Assembly: GCA_963796055.1 (NCBI GenBank)
Contig: CAWCKH010000005.1
Coordinates: forward strand, 64,001-128,000
Length of the DNA: 64,000 bases
Reading direction: 5' to 3'
Origin: an uncultured delta proteobacterium
GTDB taxonomy: Bacteria > Myxococcota > Myxococcia > Myxococcales > Myxococcaceae
Every line of letters starts with the position of its first letter. Positions within the stretch are counted from its first letter, which is position 1. The notes beneath the pieces were generated by a model. The model searched no databases. It saw only the letters and a list, made by a program, of their open reading frames with translations, and was not told where the DNA came from. Shown here in pieces: positions 38,601-50,014 of the stretch. The translations under genes and the position numbers were made by a program.

Positions 38601-41573
38601 CTAGCCCCGGCCCCGCGGGCGGCGCCGCCACGCACCCCAGGCGAGCAGCAGCGCCAGCGCCGGGAGCAGCGCCGCGCTCCCGCTCGTGCTCCGGCAGGCG
38701 CAGCCCCCGCTCACCTCCCCTCCTTGCGTGAGCGGGGCCGAGGCCTGGGCGGTCTTCATCAGCACCGGGGTGGCGCGCCCGGTCGCCTCCCAGATGGCGT
38801 GGAGGGCGTCGCCCGTGCCATCGGTCAGGTTCGCCGCGGCGAGCGCCTCCACGTACTCGCGGGTGGTCGGCTGGTAGAAGAGCCGCGCCTCCACCGTGGT
38901 GCTCCCCGCGGCGAGCGCGGAGGCCGGGAAGGTGACCCGGTACGTCCAGTCCACCGCGCCCATCGCACCACCGTCCGCGTCGCGGAGGAAGCTGATTCCC
39001 ACCGGTGCGGTGTCCTGGTCGGGGCGGAAACCCAGTGGCTCGATGCGGGTGTCCTTGAGGATGGTGTCGTGCAGCGCCAGGTGGTCCAGCCCACCGTCGC
39101 TGCGCGCGTGCACCGCCTCGAACACGGCCAGCTGCGAGTCGGAGAGCAGCAGGCCCGCGTCGCCGTCGTAGGCGCCGCTCACCACCTGGCCGTCGACCCG
39201 CAGCTCGAGGAAGACCCGCCGGCCGTCGGCATAGCCAGTGGGCAGCTTGTGCCCGGTCCGGTTGAAGACCCGGACCTTCACCTCCACCTCGGTCTCCACC
39301 GGGATGGCGCCACCGGGAAGGGTGATCTGCACCTCCGCGGCGCCGCCGAGGTTGTCCAGCGCCGCCGCGCGGTTCGCGGCGAAGGCGGCGTCCAGACCCG
39401 CGAGCTGGCCGGAAGCGGCGGCAGCACGGACCGCATCGAGCCCCCACACGTTGCCGCCGACGAAGGCGTGGCGGCTCGGCGTCTGCCGGGCAGGGCCGTC
39501 CTTGGCCACCGGGAGGCTCTGCGTCTCGCGCAGCATGTGACAGGACTGGCAAGTCTTCGGGGAGGCGCCGCTGGAGTACGCGGACTGGAGCCACTCGGAG
39601 TAGGTGGTGTCGAGCGGGAAGGCCCGCTGCGTCCCGGCGCGTTTCAGGATTGGGTTGCGCACCTCGTGGCACTGGCCGCAGAGGCTGCTCTGGCTGACCG
39701 CCGGATCCTGCACTCCGGTGTGCGCCGGGCTGTCCACGTTGGGGTAGGGCCCGAAGACGGTGAAGCTGGGCTCGAAGGTGAGCTGGGCGTTGCCGATCAC
39801 CCCGGCATCGGTGCGGGTGCGGTGGCAGGCCTCGCAGCTGACGCCGGCGCGGTCCACCGCGTCGAGCGCGCTCCCGTTCGGAGGTAGCCCGTGGCCCTGG
39901 ACGTAGGAGGTGGGCGAGTGGCAACGCAGGCACCACTGCCCGATGCCCAGCACGTCCTGGTTCGCGACGCTGAGCGCGGCCTGGTAGAGCGGGTCGCGGA
40001 CCGCGTTGGCCATCATCGTCGCCGCCCAGCTGTCCCAGGGCATGTACGGGGTGCCGGCGTCGACCGACGCGCTGGCGTGGCAGAGCTGGCAGGTGTCCGG
40101 CCCCTGGAACGGCGCGCCGCCGGCGAGACCTCCCGGCGGGGTGCCGCCGCCGAAGTCGATGGGTCCGGCGTCGAGCGGTGGCCCGGCGTCGGGCCGCGGT
40201 CCGGCGTCGGGCGCTCCCGCATCCGGACGGCCCGCGTCGGGCGCTCCCGCATCCGGACGGCCCGCGTCGGGCCTACCGGCGTCCGGAACTCCTGCGTCCA
40301 CGCCCGGACGGGGGGAGACGAGGAGGATGCTGCCCTCGACGCGTGAGACGTAGAGGTTTCCGTCCGGACCGACGAGGAAGCGCGTCACGGTGCCGAAGCC
40401 GGTGCCGAAGTCAGCCCGCGGGCTGGCCACGAACCCGTCCCGGTTCGCGTTGGGGGTCAGGGTCCAGACGTTGCCGTTGGCGTTGTCGCCGAAGAAGTAG
40501 CGCCCCCGGTACGGCGCGGGGAAGCTGGCGCTGTCCACGAAGACGCCGCCGGTGATGCTCTGGCAGTTCCCGTCGTTGTTCCCCAGGGCGCCAGCGTGCT
40601 CGCAGAAGTACGCCGGGTCCACGCAGTCGGCGCCGACGCCGTTGGGGCCGAGCGGGTCGCATCGGGTGACCGGATGGCCAAACGCGCCCTCGCGGTAGGG
40701 CCAGCCGTAGTGCTGGCCCTTGCGGACCAGGTCGATCTCCTCGTAGCTGACCTCGCCGACGTCGCCGACCCAGAGGAAGCCGGTCTGTGGGTCGAAGGCG
40801 AAGCGGAACGGGTTGCGAAACCCCCAGGCCCAGATCTCCGTCCTCGCGCCGGCGATGAGGGTGCCTGCGTCCGGGCCGCTGCCGCAGCTTCCGTTGCACG
40901 CCGGCACCGTGGTTCCCGGGGCGGCGAGCGGGTTGTCGTTGGGGATGGTGCCGTCGAGGTTGATGCGGAGCACCTTCCCGTTGGCCGTGGTGAGGCAGGT
41001 CCCGATGTAGTTGCCGATGTTTCCGCCGGGAGGGAGGCCGGTGTTGCAGCCGGTGTCGCCGACGCCGACGTAGAGCTTGCCGTCGGGCCCGATGGCCAGC
41101 GCCCCGCCATCGTGGTTGGCCGGGCCCTGCAGGTTCTGCAGCAGCACCGTCACGGCCATCTGGGCCGTGCTGCAGGAGCCGGTGCACTGGAGCGTGTTGT
41201 CGGGGTTGAGCCGGACCTTGAGCACCCGGTGCTTGTTCGCGGTGGTGGGCCCGTCCGAGGCGTAGAAGTACAGGAAGGTGTTGGAGGCGAACTGGGGATC
41301 GACCTCCACCCCCAGCAGACCCTTCTCGCTGTCGAAGTCCACGCTGAAGCTGCCCGCGGTCACCACGCTGCCGTCGGTGCGGCGGACCTTCACCGCGCCG
41401 GTCTTCTCGGTCATCACCACCCGGCCGTCGGGGAGAAAACGGAAATCGGTGATCTGCCCCTGCCCCGAGACGTACGTCCCCACCTGGAAGGTGCTCGCCG
41501 GGCCGCCGGTGGTGAGCGTCTGGGCGGTTGCGGGGACCCAGACGAGGGTGGCCGCCAGGAGGAGCCTGCGCAT
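38601..41573 (-). CDS. Secreted PQQ-dependent sugar dehydrogenase (sGDH/YliI-type) fused to a pentaheme cytochrome c, with a MYXO-CTERM-like anchor
   Basis: Signal peptide. Dehydrogenase motifs EKGLLG, NHDGG, GKVLRI, GFRNPF, GDVG..EEID and YGWP. DAG-repeat linker. Heme motifs CQLCH, CLRCH, CEACH, CGQCH, CQSCH. Tail GGCAC + TM + RRR. Confidence 0.88.
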   Translation of the reverse strand: MRRLLLAATLVWVPATAQTLTTGGPASTFQVGTYVSGQGQITDFRFLPDGRVVMTEKTGAVKVRRTDGSVVTAGSFSVDFDSEKGLLGVEVDPQFASNTFLYFYASDGPTTANKHRVLKVRLNPDNTLQCTGSCSTAQMAVTVLLQNLQGPANHDGGALAIGPDGKLYVGVGDTGCNTGLPPGGNIGNYIGTCLTTANGKVLRINLDGTIPNDNPLAAPGTTVPACNGSCGSGPDAGTLIAGARTEIWAWGFRNPFRFAFDPQTGFLWVGDVGEVSYEEIDLVRKGQHYGWPYREGAFGHPVTRCDPLGPNGVGADCVDPAYFCEHAGALGNNDGNCQSITGGVFVDSASFPAPYRGRYFFGDNANGNVWTLTPNANRDGFVASPRADFGTGFGTVTRFLVGPDGNLYVSRVEGSILLVSPRPGVDAGVPDAGRPDAGRPDAGAPDAGRPDAGAPDAGPRPDAGPPLDAGPIDFGGGTPPGGLAGGAPFQGPDTCQLCHASASVDAGTPYMPWDSWAATMMANAVRDPLYQAALSVANQDVLGIGQWCLRCHSPTSYVQGHGLPPNGSALDAVDRAGVSCEACHRTRTDAGVIGNAQLTFEPSFTVFGPYPNVDSPAHTGVQDPAVSQSSLCGQCHEVRNPILKRAGTQRAFPLDTTYSEWLQSAYSSGASPKTCQSCHMLRETQSLPVAKDGPARQTPSRHAFVGGNVWGLDAVRAAAASGQLAGLDAAFAANRAAALDNLGGAAEVQITLPGGAIPVETEVEVKVRVFNRTGHKLPTGYADGRRVFLELRVDGQVVSGAYDGDAGLLLSDSQLAVFEAVHARSDGGLDHLALHDTILKDTRIEPLGFRPDQDTAPVGISFLRDADGGAMGAVDWTYRVTFPASALAAGSTTVEARLFYQPTTREYVEALAAANLTDGTGDALHAIWEATGRATPVLMKTAQASAPLTQGGEVSGGCACRSTSGSAALLPALALLLAWGAWRRRPRGRG
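40204..40272. repeat. 30-bp tandem repeat (2.3 exact copies) encoding the DAGRP/DAGAP linker
   Basis: gcgtcgggcgctcccgcatccggacggccc starts at 40204 and 40234, with a partial copy at 40264. Degenerate 15-bp units extend on both sides. Confidence 0.9.
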
Positions 41574-41706: not shown

Positions 41707-42003
41707 TCAGACGCCGGCGCGGCGGAGCTCCGGGGCGAGCCGGCCCGACAGTGCGAGCGCCCACATCTTCCAGTCCGCAGCCAGCGACCAGAGCGGGTAG
41801 CGGAAGGTGGCGGCGAAGCCGTAGCCCGCCACCAGGGCACCGACCAGCAACAGGGGCCGACCGCTCACCACCGTCCAGACCAGCAGCAGCAGCGAGAGCG
41901 TGGTCCCCACCAGGTGGAGCATCCGCGTGCCGGGCTGGCGGTGCTCGCGCAGATAGTAGGGCCAGAACTCGGCGAAGCTGCCGATGCGCGGCCCGGCGTT
42001 CAT
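41707..42003 (-). CDS. DUF962/Mpo1-like membrane protein with an apparent in-frame internal deletion
   Basis: [13 protein letters not shown]...LHLVGT...[15 protein letters not shown]. The usual W-x-GH-x3-E-x-N-x-P segment is absent. Confidence 0.8.
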
Positions 42004-42512
42004 GCCCGCTGCAGCTCCTTCAGCATGGTCTCGGCGTCGCTCACCTCGAACTTCCCGGGCGCCTCGACGTGGAGCGACTTCACCATCCCGTCGTCGAGCA
42101 GCATCGAGTAGCGCTGCGAGCGGACGCCCATGCCCTTCGAGGTGAGGTCCTGGTCCAGCCCCAGCGCCCGGCTCCAAAAGGCGCTCCCGTCGGCCAGCAT
42201 GCGGATCTTCCCCCCGGTCTTCTGCTCCCGTCCCCAGGCGCCCATGACGAAGGCGTCGTTCACCGAGACGCACCAGATCTCGTCCACGCCGCGGCCCTTC
42301 AGCGCGGCGGCCTGGGCGAGATAGCCGGGGACGTGCTTCGCCGAGCAGGTGGGGGTGAACGCCCCGGGGAGCCCGAACACCACGATCCGCTTGCCGGCGA
42401 CCAGCTTCGAGACCTGGAACGTATTGGGGCCGAGCGCGCAGCCCGGCGTCTCCTGCTCGATGAACTCGCTCAGCGTCCCGTCGGGGACGCGGTGTCCGAC
42501 CTGGATGGGCAT
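42000..42512 (-). CDS. Peroxiredoxin (Prx5/redoxin family)
   Basis: [20 protein letters not shown] and RSQRYSM. Confidence 0.93.
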
Positions 42513-48690: not shown

Positions 48691-49563
48691 ATGCGCCGTC
48701 TGCTGTCGTCGCTGCTGCTGCTCACCGTCGCCTGCGCGCTGGGGGACTACTCCGGCGGCACGGGCAATCTGAACAACGGGCCCGATGGGGGCTCGAACGG
48801 CGGTGGCGGCGTCGTGCCGGGTGACCTGCCGTGCGACGTGGCGACCTTGCTCTCCGCCCATTGCACCAGCTGCCACGGCACGCCGCCCAGTGGCAACGCG
48901 CCGATGCCGCTCGACAGCCACGCGGCCCTCACCGCCCTCTCCAGCACGTTCGCCGGGCAGTCCGAGGCCCAGCGGTCGCTGGTCCGGATGGAGGACTCGG
49001 CCTCGCCGATGCCGCCCGGAACCGGGGTGACCGTCCCCGCCGCGGACATCGCCGCGTTCGCCAGCTGGGTCGACGCCGGCACGCCCACCGGAAGCTGCGC
49101 GCCGGCGCAGGACCCGGTGTTCAGCGCGCCCCCCAAGTGCAGCAGCAACAGCTACTGGACCAACGGAGACGAGGGCAGCTCCCAGATGCACCCCGGCGTG
49201 GCCTGCATCGCTTGTCACGCCAGGAGCGGCGATGCCCCGAACTTCGCCATCGCCGGCACCGTCTACCCGACCGGGCACGAGTTCGACGACTGCAAGGGAA
49301 CCGCTGCGGCGGGAGCCAGCGTCACGGTCACCGACAAGAACGGCGTGTCGCGCAGCTTCGGGGTCAACTCGGTAGGAAACTTCTACGGCAACCCGGGTGG
49401 GGGCTGGCCGGCATTCCCGATCACCGCCACGGTGAGCTTCAACGGGAAGACCCGGAGCATGGCCACCGCGGTCCCCTCCGGGGATTGCAACACCTGCCAT
49501 ACCCAGAGCGGCACCGCGGTGGGTGGAATCCCCGCGCCGCCGGGGCGCGTTGCGCTACCCTGA
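48691..49563 (+). CDS. Triheme c-type cytochrome lipoprotein
   Basis: Lipobox TVAC. CTSCH with distal MPP, plus CIACH and CNTCH. Confidence 0.85.
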   Translation: MRRLLSSLLLLTVACALGDYSGGTGNLNNGPDGGSNGGGGVVPGDLPCDVATLLSAHCTSCHGTPPSGNAPMPLDSHAALTALSSTFAGQSEAQRSLVRMEDSASPMPPGTGVTVPAADIAAFASWVDAGTPTGSCAPAQDPVFSAPPKCSSNSYWTNGDEGSSQMHPGVACIACHARSGDAPNFAIAGTVYPTGHEFDDCKGTAAAGASVTVTDKNGVSRSFGVNSVGNFYGNPGGGWPAFPITATVSFNGKTRSMATAVPSGDCNTCHTQSGTAVGGIPAPPGRVALP

Positions 49564-49570
49564 GCCCGCC

Positions 49571-50014
49571 TTGAGACGCGTCCTCCTCGCCACCACGGTG
49601 CTCGCCGGTGGGCTGGCGCACGCCTCGTCCACCTTCCCGGAGGAGATCCGGGCCCACCTCGCACTGTCGTACACCCCGGACTGCTCGCTCTGTCACGCCA
49701 ACGGGCAGACCGGCTTCGGGACGGTGACCACGCCCTTCGGGACGTCGATGCGCTCCCGCGGACTGGTGGCGCAGAACCTCGCCAGCCTCGACACCGCGCT
49801 GGACGCGCTGGCGGCGGAGAACAAGGACAGCGATGGTGACGGGGTCGGAGACACCGACGAGCTGAAGGCCGGAAGCGACCCGAACGTGGCGGGGGGAGGC
49901 AGCTTTCCGCCGCCGACGTACGGCTGCTTCGATGTGAGCGGGCAGCTCTCCTCGCCGCTGGCGCTGCTTCCCCTCGCGCTGGCCTGGCTGGCGCTCCGCA
50001 TGCGCCGGGCCTGA
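49571..50014 (+). CDS. Small secreted monoheme protein with a DxDxDG Ca-binding loop and MYXO-CTERM-like tail
   Basis: Signal peptide ending AHA, CSLCH, DSDGDGVGDTDE, and YGC + TM + RMRR. TTG start. Confidence 0.75.
   Translation: MRRVLLATTVLAGGLAHASSTFPEEIRAHLALSYTPDCSLCHANGQTGFGTVTTPFGTSMRSRGLVAQNLASLDTALDALAAENKDSDGDGVGDTDELKAGSDPNVAGGGSFPPPTYGCFDVSGQLSSPLALLPLALAWLALRMRRA

Follow-up and report, generated by a model that had tools for sequence, protein, structure and literature searches.

The 64,000-nucleotide window studied here (positions 64,001 to 128,000, forward strand, of contig CAWCKH010000005.1 in assembly GCA_963796055.1, an uncultured delta proteobacterium of the Myxococcaceae) encodes a 990-amino-acid (aa) protein on its reverse strand, in which a six-bladed propeller of the GSDH family is fused to a pentahaem cytochrome module ending in a MYXO-CTERM-like tail. 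This fusion is genuine, and its two halves recur together in other genomes. We tentatively propose, at a little short of an even chance, that the protein is a surface two-module oxidoreductase whose propeller would oxidise an organic substrate and feed the haems, which would discharge outside the cell. This proposal is built on the fusion, both folds, the recurring linkage, the pattern of kept and lost residues and the genes for sorting and haem maturation in the host genome (5.53 Mb, 98.5% complete).

The open reading frame (ORF) translates with zero internal stops, and the five CxxCH motifs, the GSDH domain with NHDGG and RNP, the DAG linker and the GGCAC-RRR tail described by a sequence-only reading of the window were all recovered, the five motifs at exactly the same positions. 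Five CxxCH motifs are beyond chance, as none of 20,000 shuffles reached five and the maximum was 2. The propeller half contains ten Cys, with NHDGG at aa 153 and RNP at aa 253; its Pfam GSDH match (E 1e-40) extends over aa 44-411. An ORF finder begins the frame at a GTG at 41840, longer than from the ATG at 41573; that start was rejected, since the extension overlaps an upstream Mpo1-like gene and most homologues start level with the ATG.

Among the best 120 matches listed (233 found), 27 homologues share 60-90% identity over 82-100% coverage. They come from ncbi, jgi, ena and lgn sources, and all of them, together with P0029 and P0031, contain both halves and five CxxCH; the named relatives of the fusion protein belong to Myxococcaceae/Myxococcota. 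All 12 genus relatives match as well: the gene is one ORF through the linker in eight, two adjacent frameshifted halves in two, and cut by contig ends in the remaining two. A split gene in genome G021 was rejected, its two overlapping ORFs matching the fused P0029 with the frame shifting in the Gly-rich linker. The linker of the query holds two exact 39-bp copies, from 40272 and 40242, with a period of 30, and measures 75 aa vs 62-70 aa in the 27 homologues. This excess of 5-13 aa would suit an assembly artefact at the 30-bp repeat, which the sequence-only reading had named as a way for the fusion to fail. Mis-joining at the repeat is excluded because the 27 full-length homologues come from four sources, and single ORFs run through the linker in 8/12 genus genomes; an artefact is therefore given practically no credence. 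A strain-specific 30-bp copy, or a slip in assembly, may account for the extra length; in both cases the frame is kept.

The linkage extends beyond the genus. In a survey of 151 Myxococcaceae genomes (16 loci fetched in addition to 15 fetched earlier), the haem profile matches 43 at 1e-30. Tandem propeller and pentahaem genes occur in eight family genomes outside the genus (L028, L029, L125, L126, L127, L129, L133 and L130, the last with the gene order reversed), and separate leaders and MYXO-CTERM-like tails are visible in seven of the eight pairs. L132 is a fusion in another genus and L027 probably a frameshifted fusion; the pentahaem stands by itself at L030, as does the propeller at L031, and four loci lie too close to contig ends for a call. 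Propellers were absent from six more distant pentahaem loci of the survey. The simplest history would be that a two-gene operon was fused by loss of the first tail and the second leader. More distant Myxococcaceae PHC-type pentahaems (L134-L139), some with GHK.P.GYPSRR or GVAFRR loops, have no propeller nearby, and an internal deletion in G016 (L033 7092-8772) has left the propeller start and the haem-module end.

With one genome per species, a wider scan revealed at least 590 pentahaem relatives, the best 80 loci of which were examined. A GSDH propeller is present at 17 of these 80 (2 fused, 15 within 6 kb), including loci in Sorangium cellulosum So ce56, Chondromyces apiculatus, Anaerolineales, Krumholzibacteriia and Planctomycetota; of these 17, four are in Myxococcaceae genomes already counted, and a single Polyangiaceae group accounts for five. 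Apart from GSDH, no neighbour cluster occurs in more than 7 of the 80 loci, in a control based on BLAST clusters that is less sensitive than the GSDH hidden Markov model (HMM) and whose coding filter left 14 loci with GSDH. In a quickly built tree with 107 haem domains hand-picked from 275, where 'alone' in the P-rows means simply not fused, the fused label changes 7 times, 6 of these changes being forced by well-supported (starred) branches. Both halves occur in 8/150 representatives, a minority state, and scanning of 40 long representatives gave four with GSDH, one with lysyl oxidase and one with cupredoxin, while the others have either no further domain or ones for adhesion, lectin or sorting functions. 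A functional tie between the two halves is supported by the tandem genes and the repeated fusions, which together with the homologues bear out the fusion claimed from the sequence. The lysyl-oxidase fusion is P0175 and the cupredoxin fusion P0214. In addition, a 700-aa frame without Pfam/NCBIfam match stands beside the pentahaem gene at seven loci (L068 3710-5812 and related Dokdonella loci) and may be a wrong-frame ORF.

The AlphaFold2 (AF2) model of the propeller has a predicted local distance difference test score (pLDDT) of 91.7, and a structure search returned 2ISM (Z 43.2, root-mean-square deviation (rmsd) 1.6, 315 aligned), 7CDY (42.2) and 1C9U (36.3), with AA12 (Z 32.9 and 31.9) and HHIP (29.1) lower. 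As modelled, the fold is nearer to pyrroloquinoline quinone (PQQ) aldose dehydrogenases than to HHIP. H154, R253, R257, D271, E278, E279 and D363 are invariant in 98/98 related propellers, all pentahaem-linked types included; by alignment, H154 corresponds to the catalytic His of sGDH and R253-N254 to its RNP motif. A dead pseudo-enzyme of HHIP type was ranked less likely because this His/Arg/Asn triad is invariant. At blade 6, R-L-R-E of Thermus and R-I-R-D of Escherichia coli YliI align with T395-V-T397-R398 (we take R406 to be the label of a blade-6 PQQ Arg in sGDH); the Thermus segment, a matter of sequence alignment only, has a weak score yet is ungapped and anchored on GPDG. The blade-5 Lys of 'GALK' is replaced by A365 in the alignment, and TIGR03606 gave 82.3 bits, below its cut-off of 434.55. 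Lacking the blade-6 Arg-x-Arg and the Lys, the protein falls outside sGDH/Asd, and it may still work in an sGDH-like way. According to the accessible text of one study, Arg408 and Lys377 of sGDH hold the PQQ carboxylates (PMC6881789). In a motif-level comparison directed at Arg273, Arg621 and the N-x-x-D metal motif of CcPDH, the query shows T-D (blade 1), G-T (blade 6) and a GDVGE metal loop, in contrast to EEPR, NERD and WGRP of the AA12-type paralogue in the host genome. The earlier designation as a PQQ sugar dehydrogenase thus survives in part: the triad and the six-bladed sGDH fold, the latter looked for by the structure model it had called for, are there, and PQQ use did not gain proof, with Arg-x-Arg and Lys missing from the alignment and pqqC from the genus.

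Other clamp-less or tandem GSDH propellers were encountered. A 1,858-aa frame of the host genome (G000:C4:705334-710910; L003) has a second clamp-less GSDH propeller (SHSIG, GLRNPFR) with no haem motif and a MYXO-CTERM-like tail, and two other genomes of the order encode tandem GSDH propellers, each with a two-CxxCH domain (L040 2192-7124 and L041 5856-10365).

The haem half (AF2 model, pLDDT 92.8) consists of a helical cap and an Ig-like stem and matches Thermochromatium tepidum c552 (5ZE8; Z 25.6, rmsd 3.0, 334 aligned, 22% identity, model residues 13-473), the next row having Z 9.4. Its best PDB sequence match is MccSep 9WT8 (E 7e-4 with a single sequence, 2e-5 with a profile), which was not among the matches of two structure searches, whose libraries may not contain it. 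NF040886 (ExtKL) gave 41.8 bits, below its cut-off of 250; no true MccSep was above cut-off in 251 phylum genomes, and the ESM Atlas neighbours are uncharacterised clusters only. Four of the MccSep haems have bis-His ligation, haem 2 has His and Cys239 as ligands and the selenocysteine Sec325 next to it, and electrons are proposed to enter at haem 1, as stated in the available part of a preprint (bioRxiv 10.1101/2025.11.18.688581). In the alignment the query has Y781 for Sec325 and L654-D655 for Cys239-Cys240; by eye, M521 takes the place of the His of 'SIHA'. Because the modelled fold matches c552 while Sec and Cys are replaced, the haem module is a PHC-fold cytochrome and not an MccSep. The five haem motifs of the 'five-heme chain' suggested earlier hold, whereas a plain chain understates a module of the PHC fold, whose one characterised enzyme has its catalytic site at haem 2, and the Ig-like C-terminal ~210 aa had been missed. 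The PHC family includes ExtKL, Gsu2801, c552 and cable-bacteria proteins, c552 being termed low-potential and its function unassigned in the accessible portion of PMC11976967; PtdA is a further member (bioRxiv 10.1101/2023.11.21.568154, consulted text).

Across 274 domains, M521 is kept in 266, H618 in 268, H702 and H775 in 274 each, H831 in 251, Y781 in 255 (His in 8), D/E/Q655 in 270, R785 and D841 in 273 each and R843 in 274, and Cys is not among the five commonest residues at the Sec325 and Cys239 columns. Up to 80 of the 274 were picked by patterns with MM and GHK.P.GY; M521, H775 and Y781 are invariant also in 45 sequences picked without those patterns. The conserved polar non-ligand residues (K776, R785, D841, R843, Y781 and D/E/Q655) are what would be expected of an active site.

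The protein is probably surface-sorted, as had been suggested before. TIGR03901 gave 17.4 bits on the query tail, under its cut-off of 20; among fused orthologues P0002 (20.1) and P0020 (21.7) pass, P0031 (19.7) fails, and P0011 and P0029 have no listed match. C958 and C960 are invariant in 15/15 fusions, and distant fusions carry other tails, e.g. FlgD-Ig. The host genome encodes a myxosortase (NF040914, 130 bits), GspD (TIGR02517, 590 bits) and cytochrome c assembly proteins. MYXO-CTERM tags direct placement on the outer surface via type II secretion, according to the accessible text of PMC11980579, and the word 'cytochrome' is absent from the portions of the myxosortase papers available, that one included.

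For the proposed oxidoreductase we infer cofactor, substrate, electron direction and acceptor as follows. After Sec export and haem attachment in the periplasm, the protein would be lipidated and cleaved by the myxosortase at the Cys motif and pass by type II secretion to the outer surface, as work on TraA suggests. The invariant H154/R253/N254 site would use a quinone to oxidise a sugar-type hydroxyl by two electrons; the simplest choice would be scavenged PQQ, with R257 and K/R84 as candidate residues to hold it in place of the usual ligands. Electrons would enter at the exposed haem 1 and, by analogy with MccSep, pass via haems 3 and 4 to haem 2, whose pocket would have Tyr781, His831 and Asp655 instead of Sec and Cys and which would reduce a small extracellular acceptor such as O2/peroxide, Fe(III) or a quinone. 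Substitution of a His ligand by Met usually raises haem potential, and the His/Met haem would lift it to suit a quinol donor. A scavenged and differently held PQQ is conceivable because CcPDH binds PQQ without several sGDH ligands (PMC4133262, accessible text) and feeds a fused cytochrome (PMC4133262, PMC6881789). A bolder form, which we consider unlikely, is an undescribed multi-phylum extracellular redox pair, in which a clamp-less 'RNP[FWY]R / GDVG' GSDH dehydrogenase, with PQQ bound anew or another cofactor, and a Met/Tyr/His PHC enzyme with a catalytic haem 2 would couple sugar oxidation to reduction of O2, Fe(III) or a quinone outside the cell, as a bacterial counterpart of fungal CDH/CcPDH.

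Several observations weigh against the proposed oxidoreductase. None of the 98 propeller relatives has R-x-R at blade 6, and a basic residue stands at both positions in one of them. No pqqC was found by profile search in 13 genus genomes (host and 12 relatives); within the 151 family genomes it occurs in 1/19 with linked halves vs 8/132 others, and it is present in 1/5 more distant pair-carrying genomes. The profile itself works, because it scored above cut-off in 3/61 and 9/151 relatives; it had no match in any control genome. Since Arg-x-Arg is missing in the 98 relatives and pqqC does not track the pair, PQQ use by the propeller is doubtful. An arginine of the Arg621 type, common to CcPDH, sGDH and Asd (PMC6881789, available text), has no evident counterpart here, and the GSDH-annotated domain of the cytochrome-fused TERTU_3803 of Teredinibacter turnerae bound no PQQ and showed no glucose dehydrogenase activity, as reported in the accessible part of PMC10916295. 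On the haem side, the five distal positions could all be taken by M521, H618, H702, H775 and H831, with no haem left open. The propeller is absent at 63/80 loci (many truncated) and in 142/150 representatives, and no conserved acceptor or partner, porin or periplasmic cytochrome gene was found beside the locus in the genus and wider neighbour comparisons.

Concerning supply of the cofactor, the pqq genes that the sequence-only reading had suggested looking for did not turn up: pqqC was not found in the host genome and PqqE gave no match above cut-off there. A pqq operon was rejected, the candidates being two short PqqD-like matches and three radical-SAM matches under the PqqE cut-off. The host genome also encodes an AA12-type six-bladed propeller (G000:C4:2117033-2119174; L005) with PQQ ligands apparently intact, showing NERD as well as EEPR, GLRN, HGSWN and WGRP, which we take to be AA12-type ligand motifs. 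NERD is a lanthanide signature according to the available text of a preprint (bioRxiv 10.64898/2026.07.10.737718). The host may scavenge PQQ, because a genome without pqqC encodes this AA12-type propeller with NERD.

The missing Arg-x-Arg and Lys, the lack of a pqqC link and the negative PQQ tests of TERTU_3803 (PMC10916295, part seen) would fit a propeller that is a PQQ-free binding or hydrolytic module of HHIP/HIPL kind, with the pentahaem as an enzyme of its own, co-anchored and acting on what the propeller binds or releases; most pentahaem members, too, have only adhesion or sorting domains. This is rather unlikely in our view, given the invariant triad, a fold nearer to Asd/sGDH than to HHIP and the redox nature of the other catalytic or carrier partners fused to the pentahaem (P0175 and P0214). 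That the propeller instead feeds its electrons inward, as a canonical PQQ aldose dehydrogenase with a plain five-haem wire to the respiratory chain, is one version of the earlier reading, which also allowed external acceptors, and nothing was found to support its inward transfer. The sGDH fold, conserved His/Met residues sufficient for six-coordinate haems throughout and a separate genomic cluster of 9-13-haem cytochromes, a possible conduit not typed by HMM, would agree with it. From an outer-surface position, inward transfer would need a conduit, and no conduit gene is linked to the locus: no conserved porin or periplasmic cytochrome gene adjoins it. The canonical PQQ ligands are absent, MYXO-CTERM indicates the outer face of the outer membrane (PMC11980579, accessible text), and the characterised enzyme of the fold, MccSep, is catalytic with a branched haem arrangement, so that this version appears distinctly improbable.

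Reverse flow, in which surface cytochromes, or a small donor undergoing oxidation at haem 2, would supply the pentahaem with electrons that drive the propeller as a reductase, draws on MccSep being a reductase, the low potential ascribed to T. tepidum c552 and the large multihaem cytochromes in the genome. The solved six-bladed quinoproteins are nevertheless oxidising enzymes, and the potential shift expected of a His-to-Met change in textbooks is usually upward; we regard reverse flow as improbable.

Among known systems, CcPDH of Coprinopsis cinerea (AA8 cytochrome b, AA12 six-bladed PQQ domain and CBM1; 6JT5) is alike in being a secreted six-bladed propeller tethered to its own cytochrome, and the design of propeller plus tethered cytochrome is already known from it; the catalytic His and Arg-Asn are kept (Z 31.9, rmsd 2.4, 303 aligned). 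Unlike CcPDH, with its single b haem and its CBM, the query carries a PHC fold with five c-type haems and a membrane-sorting tail, and it shows no evident counterpart of the PQQ-carboxylate-pairing arginines. The sGDH/Asd (YliI) enzymes (1C9U, 2G8S, 2ISM, 7CDY, 3A9G) share the fold and the H, R-N-P and G-D motifs, whereas the query shows R-x-R changed to T-V-T, the GALK K to A and RNP-Q-G to RNP-F-R, with disulfide-type insertions and a fused cytochrome. That sGDH-type enzymes are six-bladed and haem-free, as the sequence-only reading assumed, is wrong as a general rule: CcPDH carries a cytochrome b, and bacterial six-bladed PQQ proteins with adjacent or fused mono- or dihaem domains are described in the available part of bioRxiv 10.64898/2026.07.10.737718. 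Type II quinohaemoprotein alcohol dehydrogenases have eight blades and one haem c, in contrast to six blades and five haems here, and PF01011 had no match in the host genome. TERTU_3803 and Cellvibrio Cbp2D-type proteins are secreted bacterial proteins with a GSDH-annotated domain and c-type haem domains (PMC10916295, accessible text); unlike the query, they have small X183/X132 haem domains and CBMs.

On the haem side, c552 and the PHC family (ExtKL, Gsu2801, cable-bacteria sPHC/lPHC, PtdA) have five haems and an Ig-like domain like the query, and in cable bacteria, too, a further redox domain, a truncated haemoglobin, is joined to PHC domains (PMC11976967, available text). The query subfamily differs in its MM, Tyr and His signature, surface sorting and propeller pairing. 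MccSep/ExtKL, a polysulfide reductase of Geobacter sulfurreducens, has the same cap-and-Ig architecture and N-x-x-G-H-x-x-P-x-G loop, whereas it has Sec325 (query Tyr781) and Cys239 (query Leu654) and forms a periplasmic tetramer. In searches of the open-access literature, no description was found of the propeller plus PHC pentahaem architecture or of the Met/Tyr/His subfamily, in line with the sequence-only reading, which knew of no characterised protein with this architecture.

Table 1. Features of the fusion gene in the window (residue numbers refer to the 990-aa protein).
Feature	Position	Strand	Basis
990-aa ORF (P0001): propeller-linker-pentahaem/Ig-MYXO-CTERM fusion	38601..41573	(-)	translation, homologues, motif count
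Likely Sec signal peptide, aa 1-17	41523..41573	(-)	sequence by eye and hydropathy
Six-bladed GSDH/sGDH-fold propeller, aa 18-424, Cys-rich insertions	40302..41522	(-)	Pfam PF07995, AF2, structure search
NHDGG; H154 aligns with sGDH catalytic His	41103..41117	(-)	alignment; His in 98/98 relatives
RNPFR; R253/N254 match the pair that binds the quinone in sGDH; R257, an invariant Arg specific to the clade	40803..40817	(-)	alignments
T395-V-T397-R398, replacing blade-6 R-x-R-D/E of solved PQQ aldose dehydrogenases	40380..40391	(-)	alignments
Pro/Asp/Ala/Gly-rich DAG linker; exact 39-bp repeat, period 30, at 40204-40272	40155..40301	(-)	
PHC-fold module, aa 474-952: helical five-haem cap and Ig-like stem	38718..40154	(-)	AF2, structure match 5ZE8, sequence match MccSep 9WT8
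CxxCH 1 (CQLCH)	40077..40091	(-)	motif count
M520-M521; M521 at the position of the MccSep His of 'SIHA' (by-eye alignment); putative distal haem ligand	40011..40016	(-)	
CxxCH 2 (CLRCH), equivalent of MccSep catalytic haem 2	39918..39932	(-)	
CxxCH 3 (CEACH)	39822..39836	(-)	motif count
CxxCH 4 (CGQCH)	39666..39680	(-)	motif count
L654-D655, aligned with MccSep C239-C240 (haem-2 Cys ligand lost)	39609..39614	(-)	
CxxCH 5 (CQSCH)	39537..39551	(-)	motif count
Ig-like stem, aa ~744-952	38718..39344	(-)	AF2 model, structure match
H775-KLPTG-Y781; Y781 aligned with MccSep Sec325	39231..39251	(-)	
H831, conserved Ig-stem His; candidate haem-2 ligand or catalytic residue	39081..39083	(-)	
MYXO-CTERM-like tail (GGCAC, hydrophobic helix, RRR)	38604..38711	(-)	TIGR03901 17.4 bits, cut-off 20

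The genus-conserved neighbours (peroxiredoxin, P-type ATPase, TonB-C protein, flavin mononucleotide (FMN) reductase, DsrE and decarboxylase) were rejected as partners because they change in other genera, where GtrA, helicase and kinase genes replace them. The peroxiredoxin gene (window 42000-42512 (-)) lies upstream on the same strand, is found also in six genus relatives and not in other genera, and might matter should peroxide be a product of the enzyme. A GtrA-type membrane protein gene follows the pentahaem, with a helicase nearby, at L027, L028, L029 and L030, in four genera that do not include that of the window. Further along the window, 48691-50014 (+) encodes first a 290-aa class I cytochrome c match that has three CxxCH and then a 163-aa protein that has one CxxCH and ends in a MYXO-CTERM-like tail; the second protein is also near the fusion in G008. 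Elsewhere in the host genome, G000:C1:305515-325985 contains seven multihaem ORFs of 5-13 CxxCH each, including two 800-1,000-aa decahaems that resemble OmcA/MtrC by eye.

The fusion joins two large families lacking assigned function, the clamp-less GSDH propellers, routinely named 'PQQ-dependent sugar dehydrogenase', and the Sec/Cys-free PHC pentahaems, with at least 590 matches at one genome per species. As both modules sit on a single polypeptide, each is open to assay there, and reduction of the haems would serve as an internal readout; the split version is found in cultured bacteria, namely Sorangium cellulosum So ce56 and Chondromyces apiculatus. If active, the protein would be a bacterial counterpart of the fungal extracellular sugar-to-cytochrome enzymes, one described as not yet identified in the accessible text of PMC10916295, and a candidate for direct-electron-transfer electrodes; if inactive, it would correct a common annotation.

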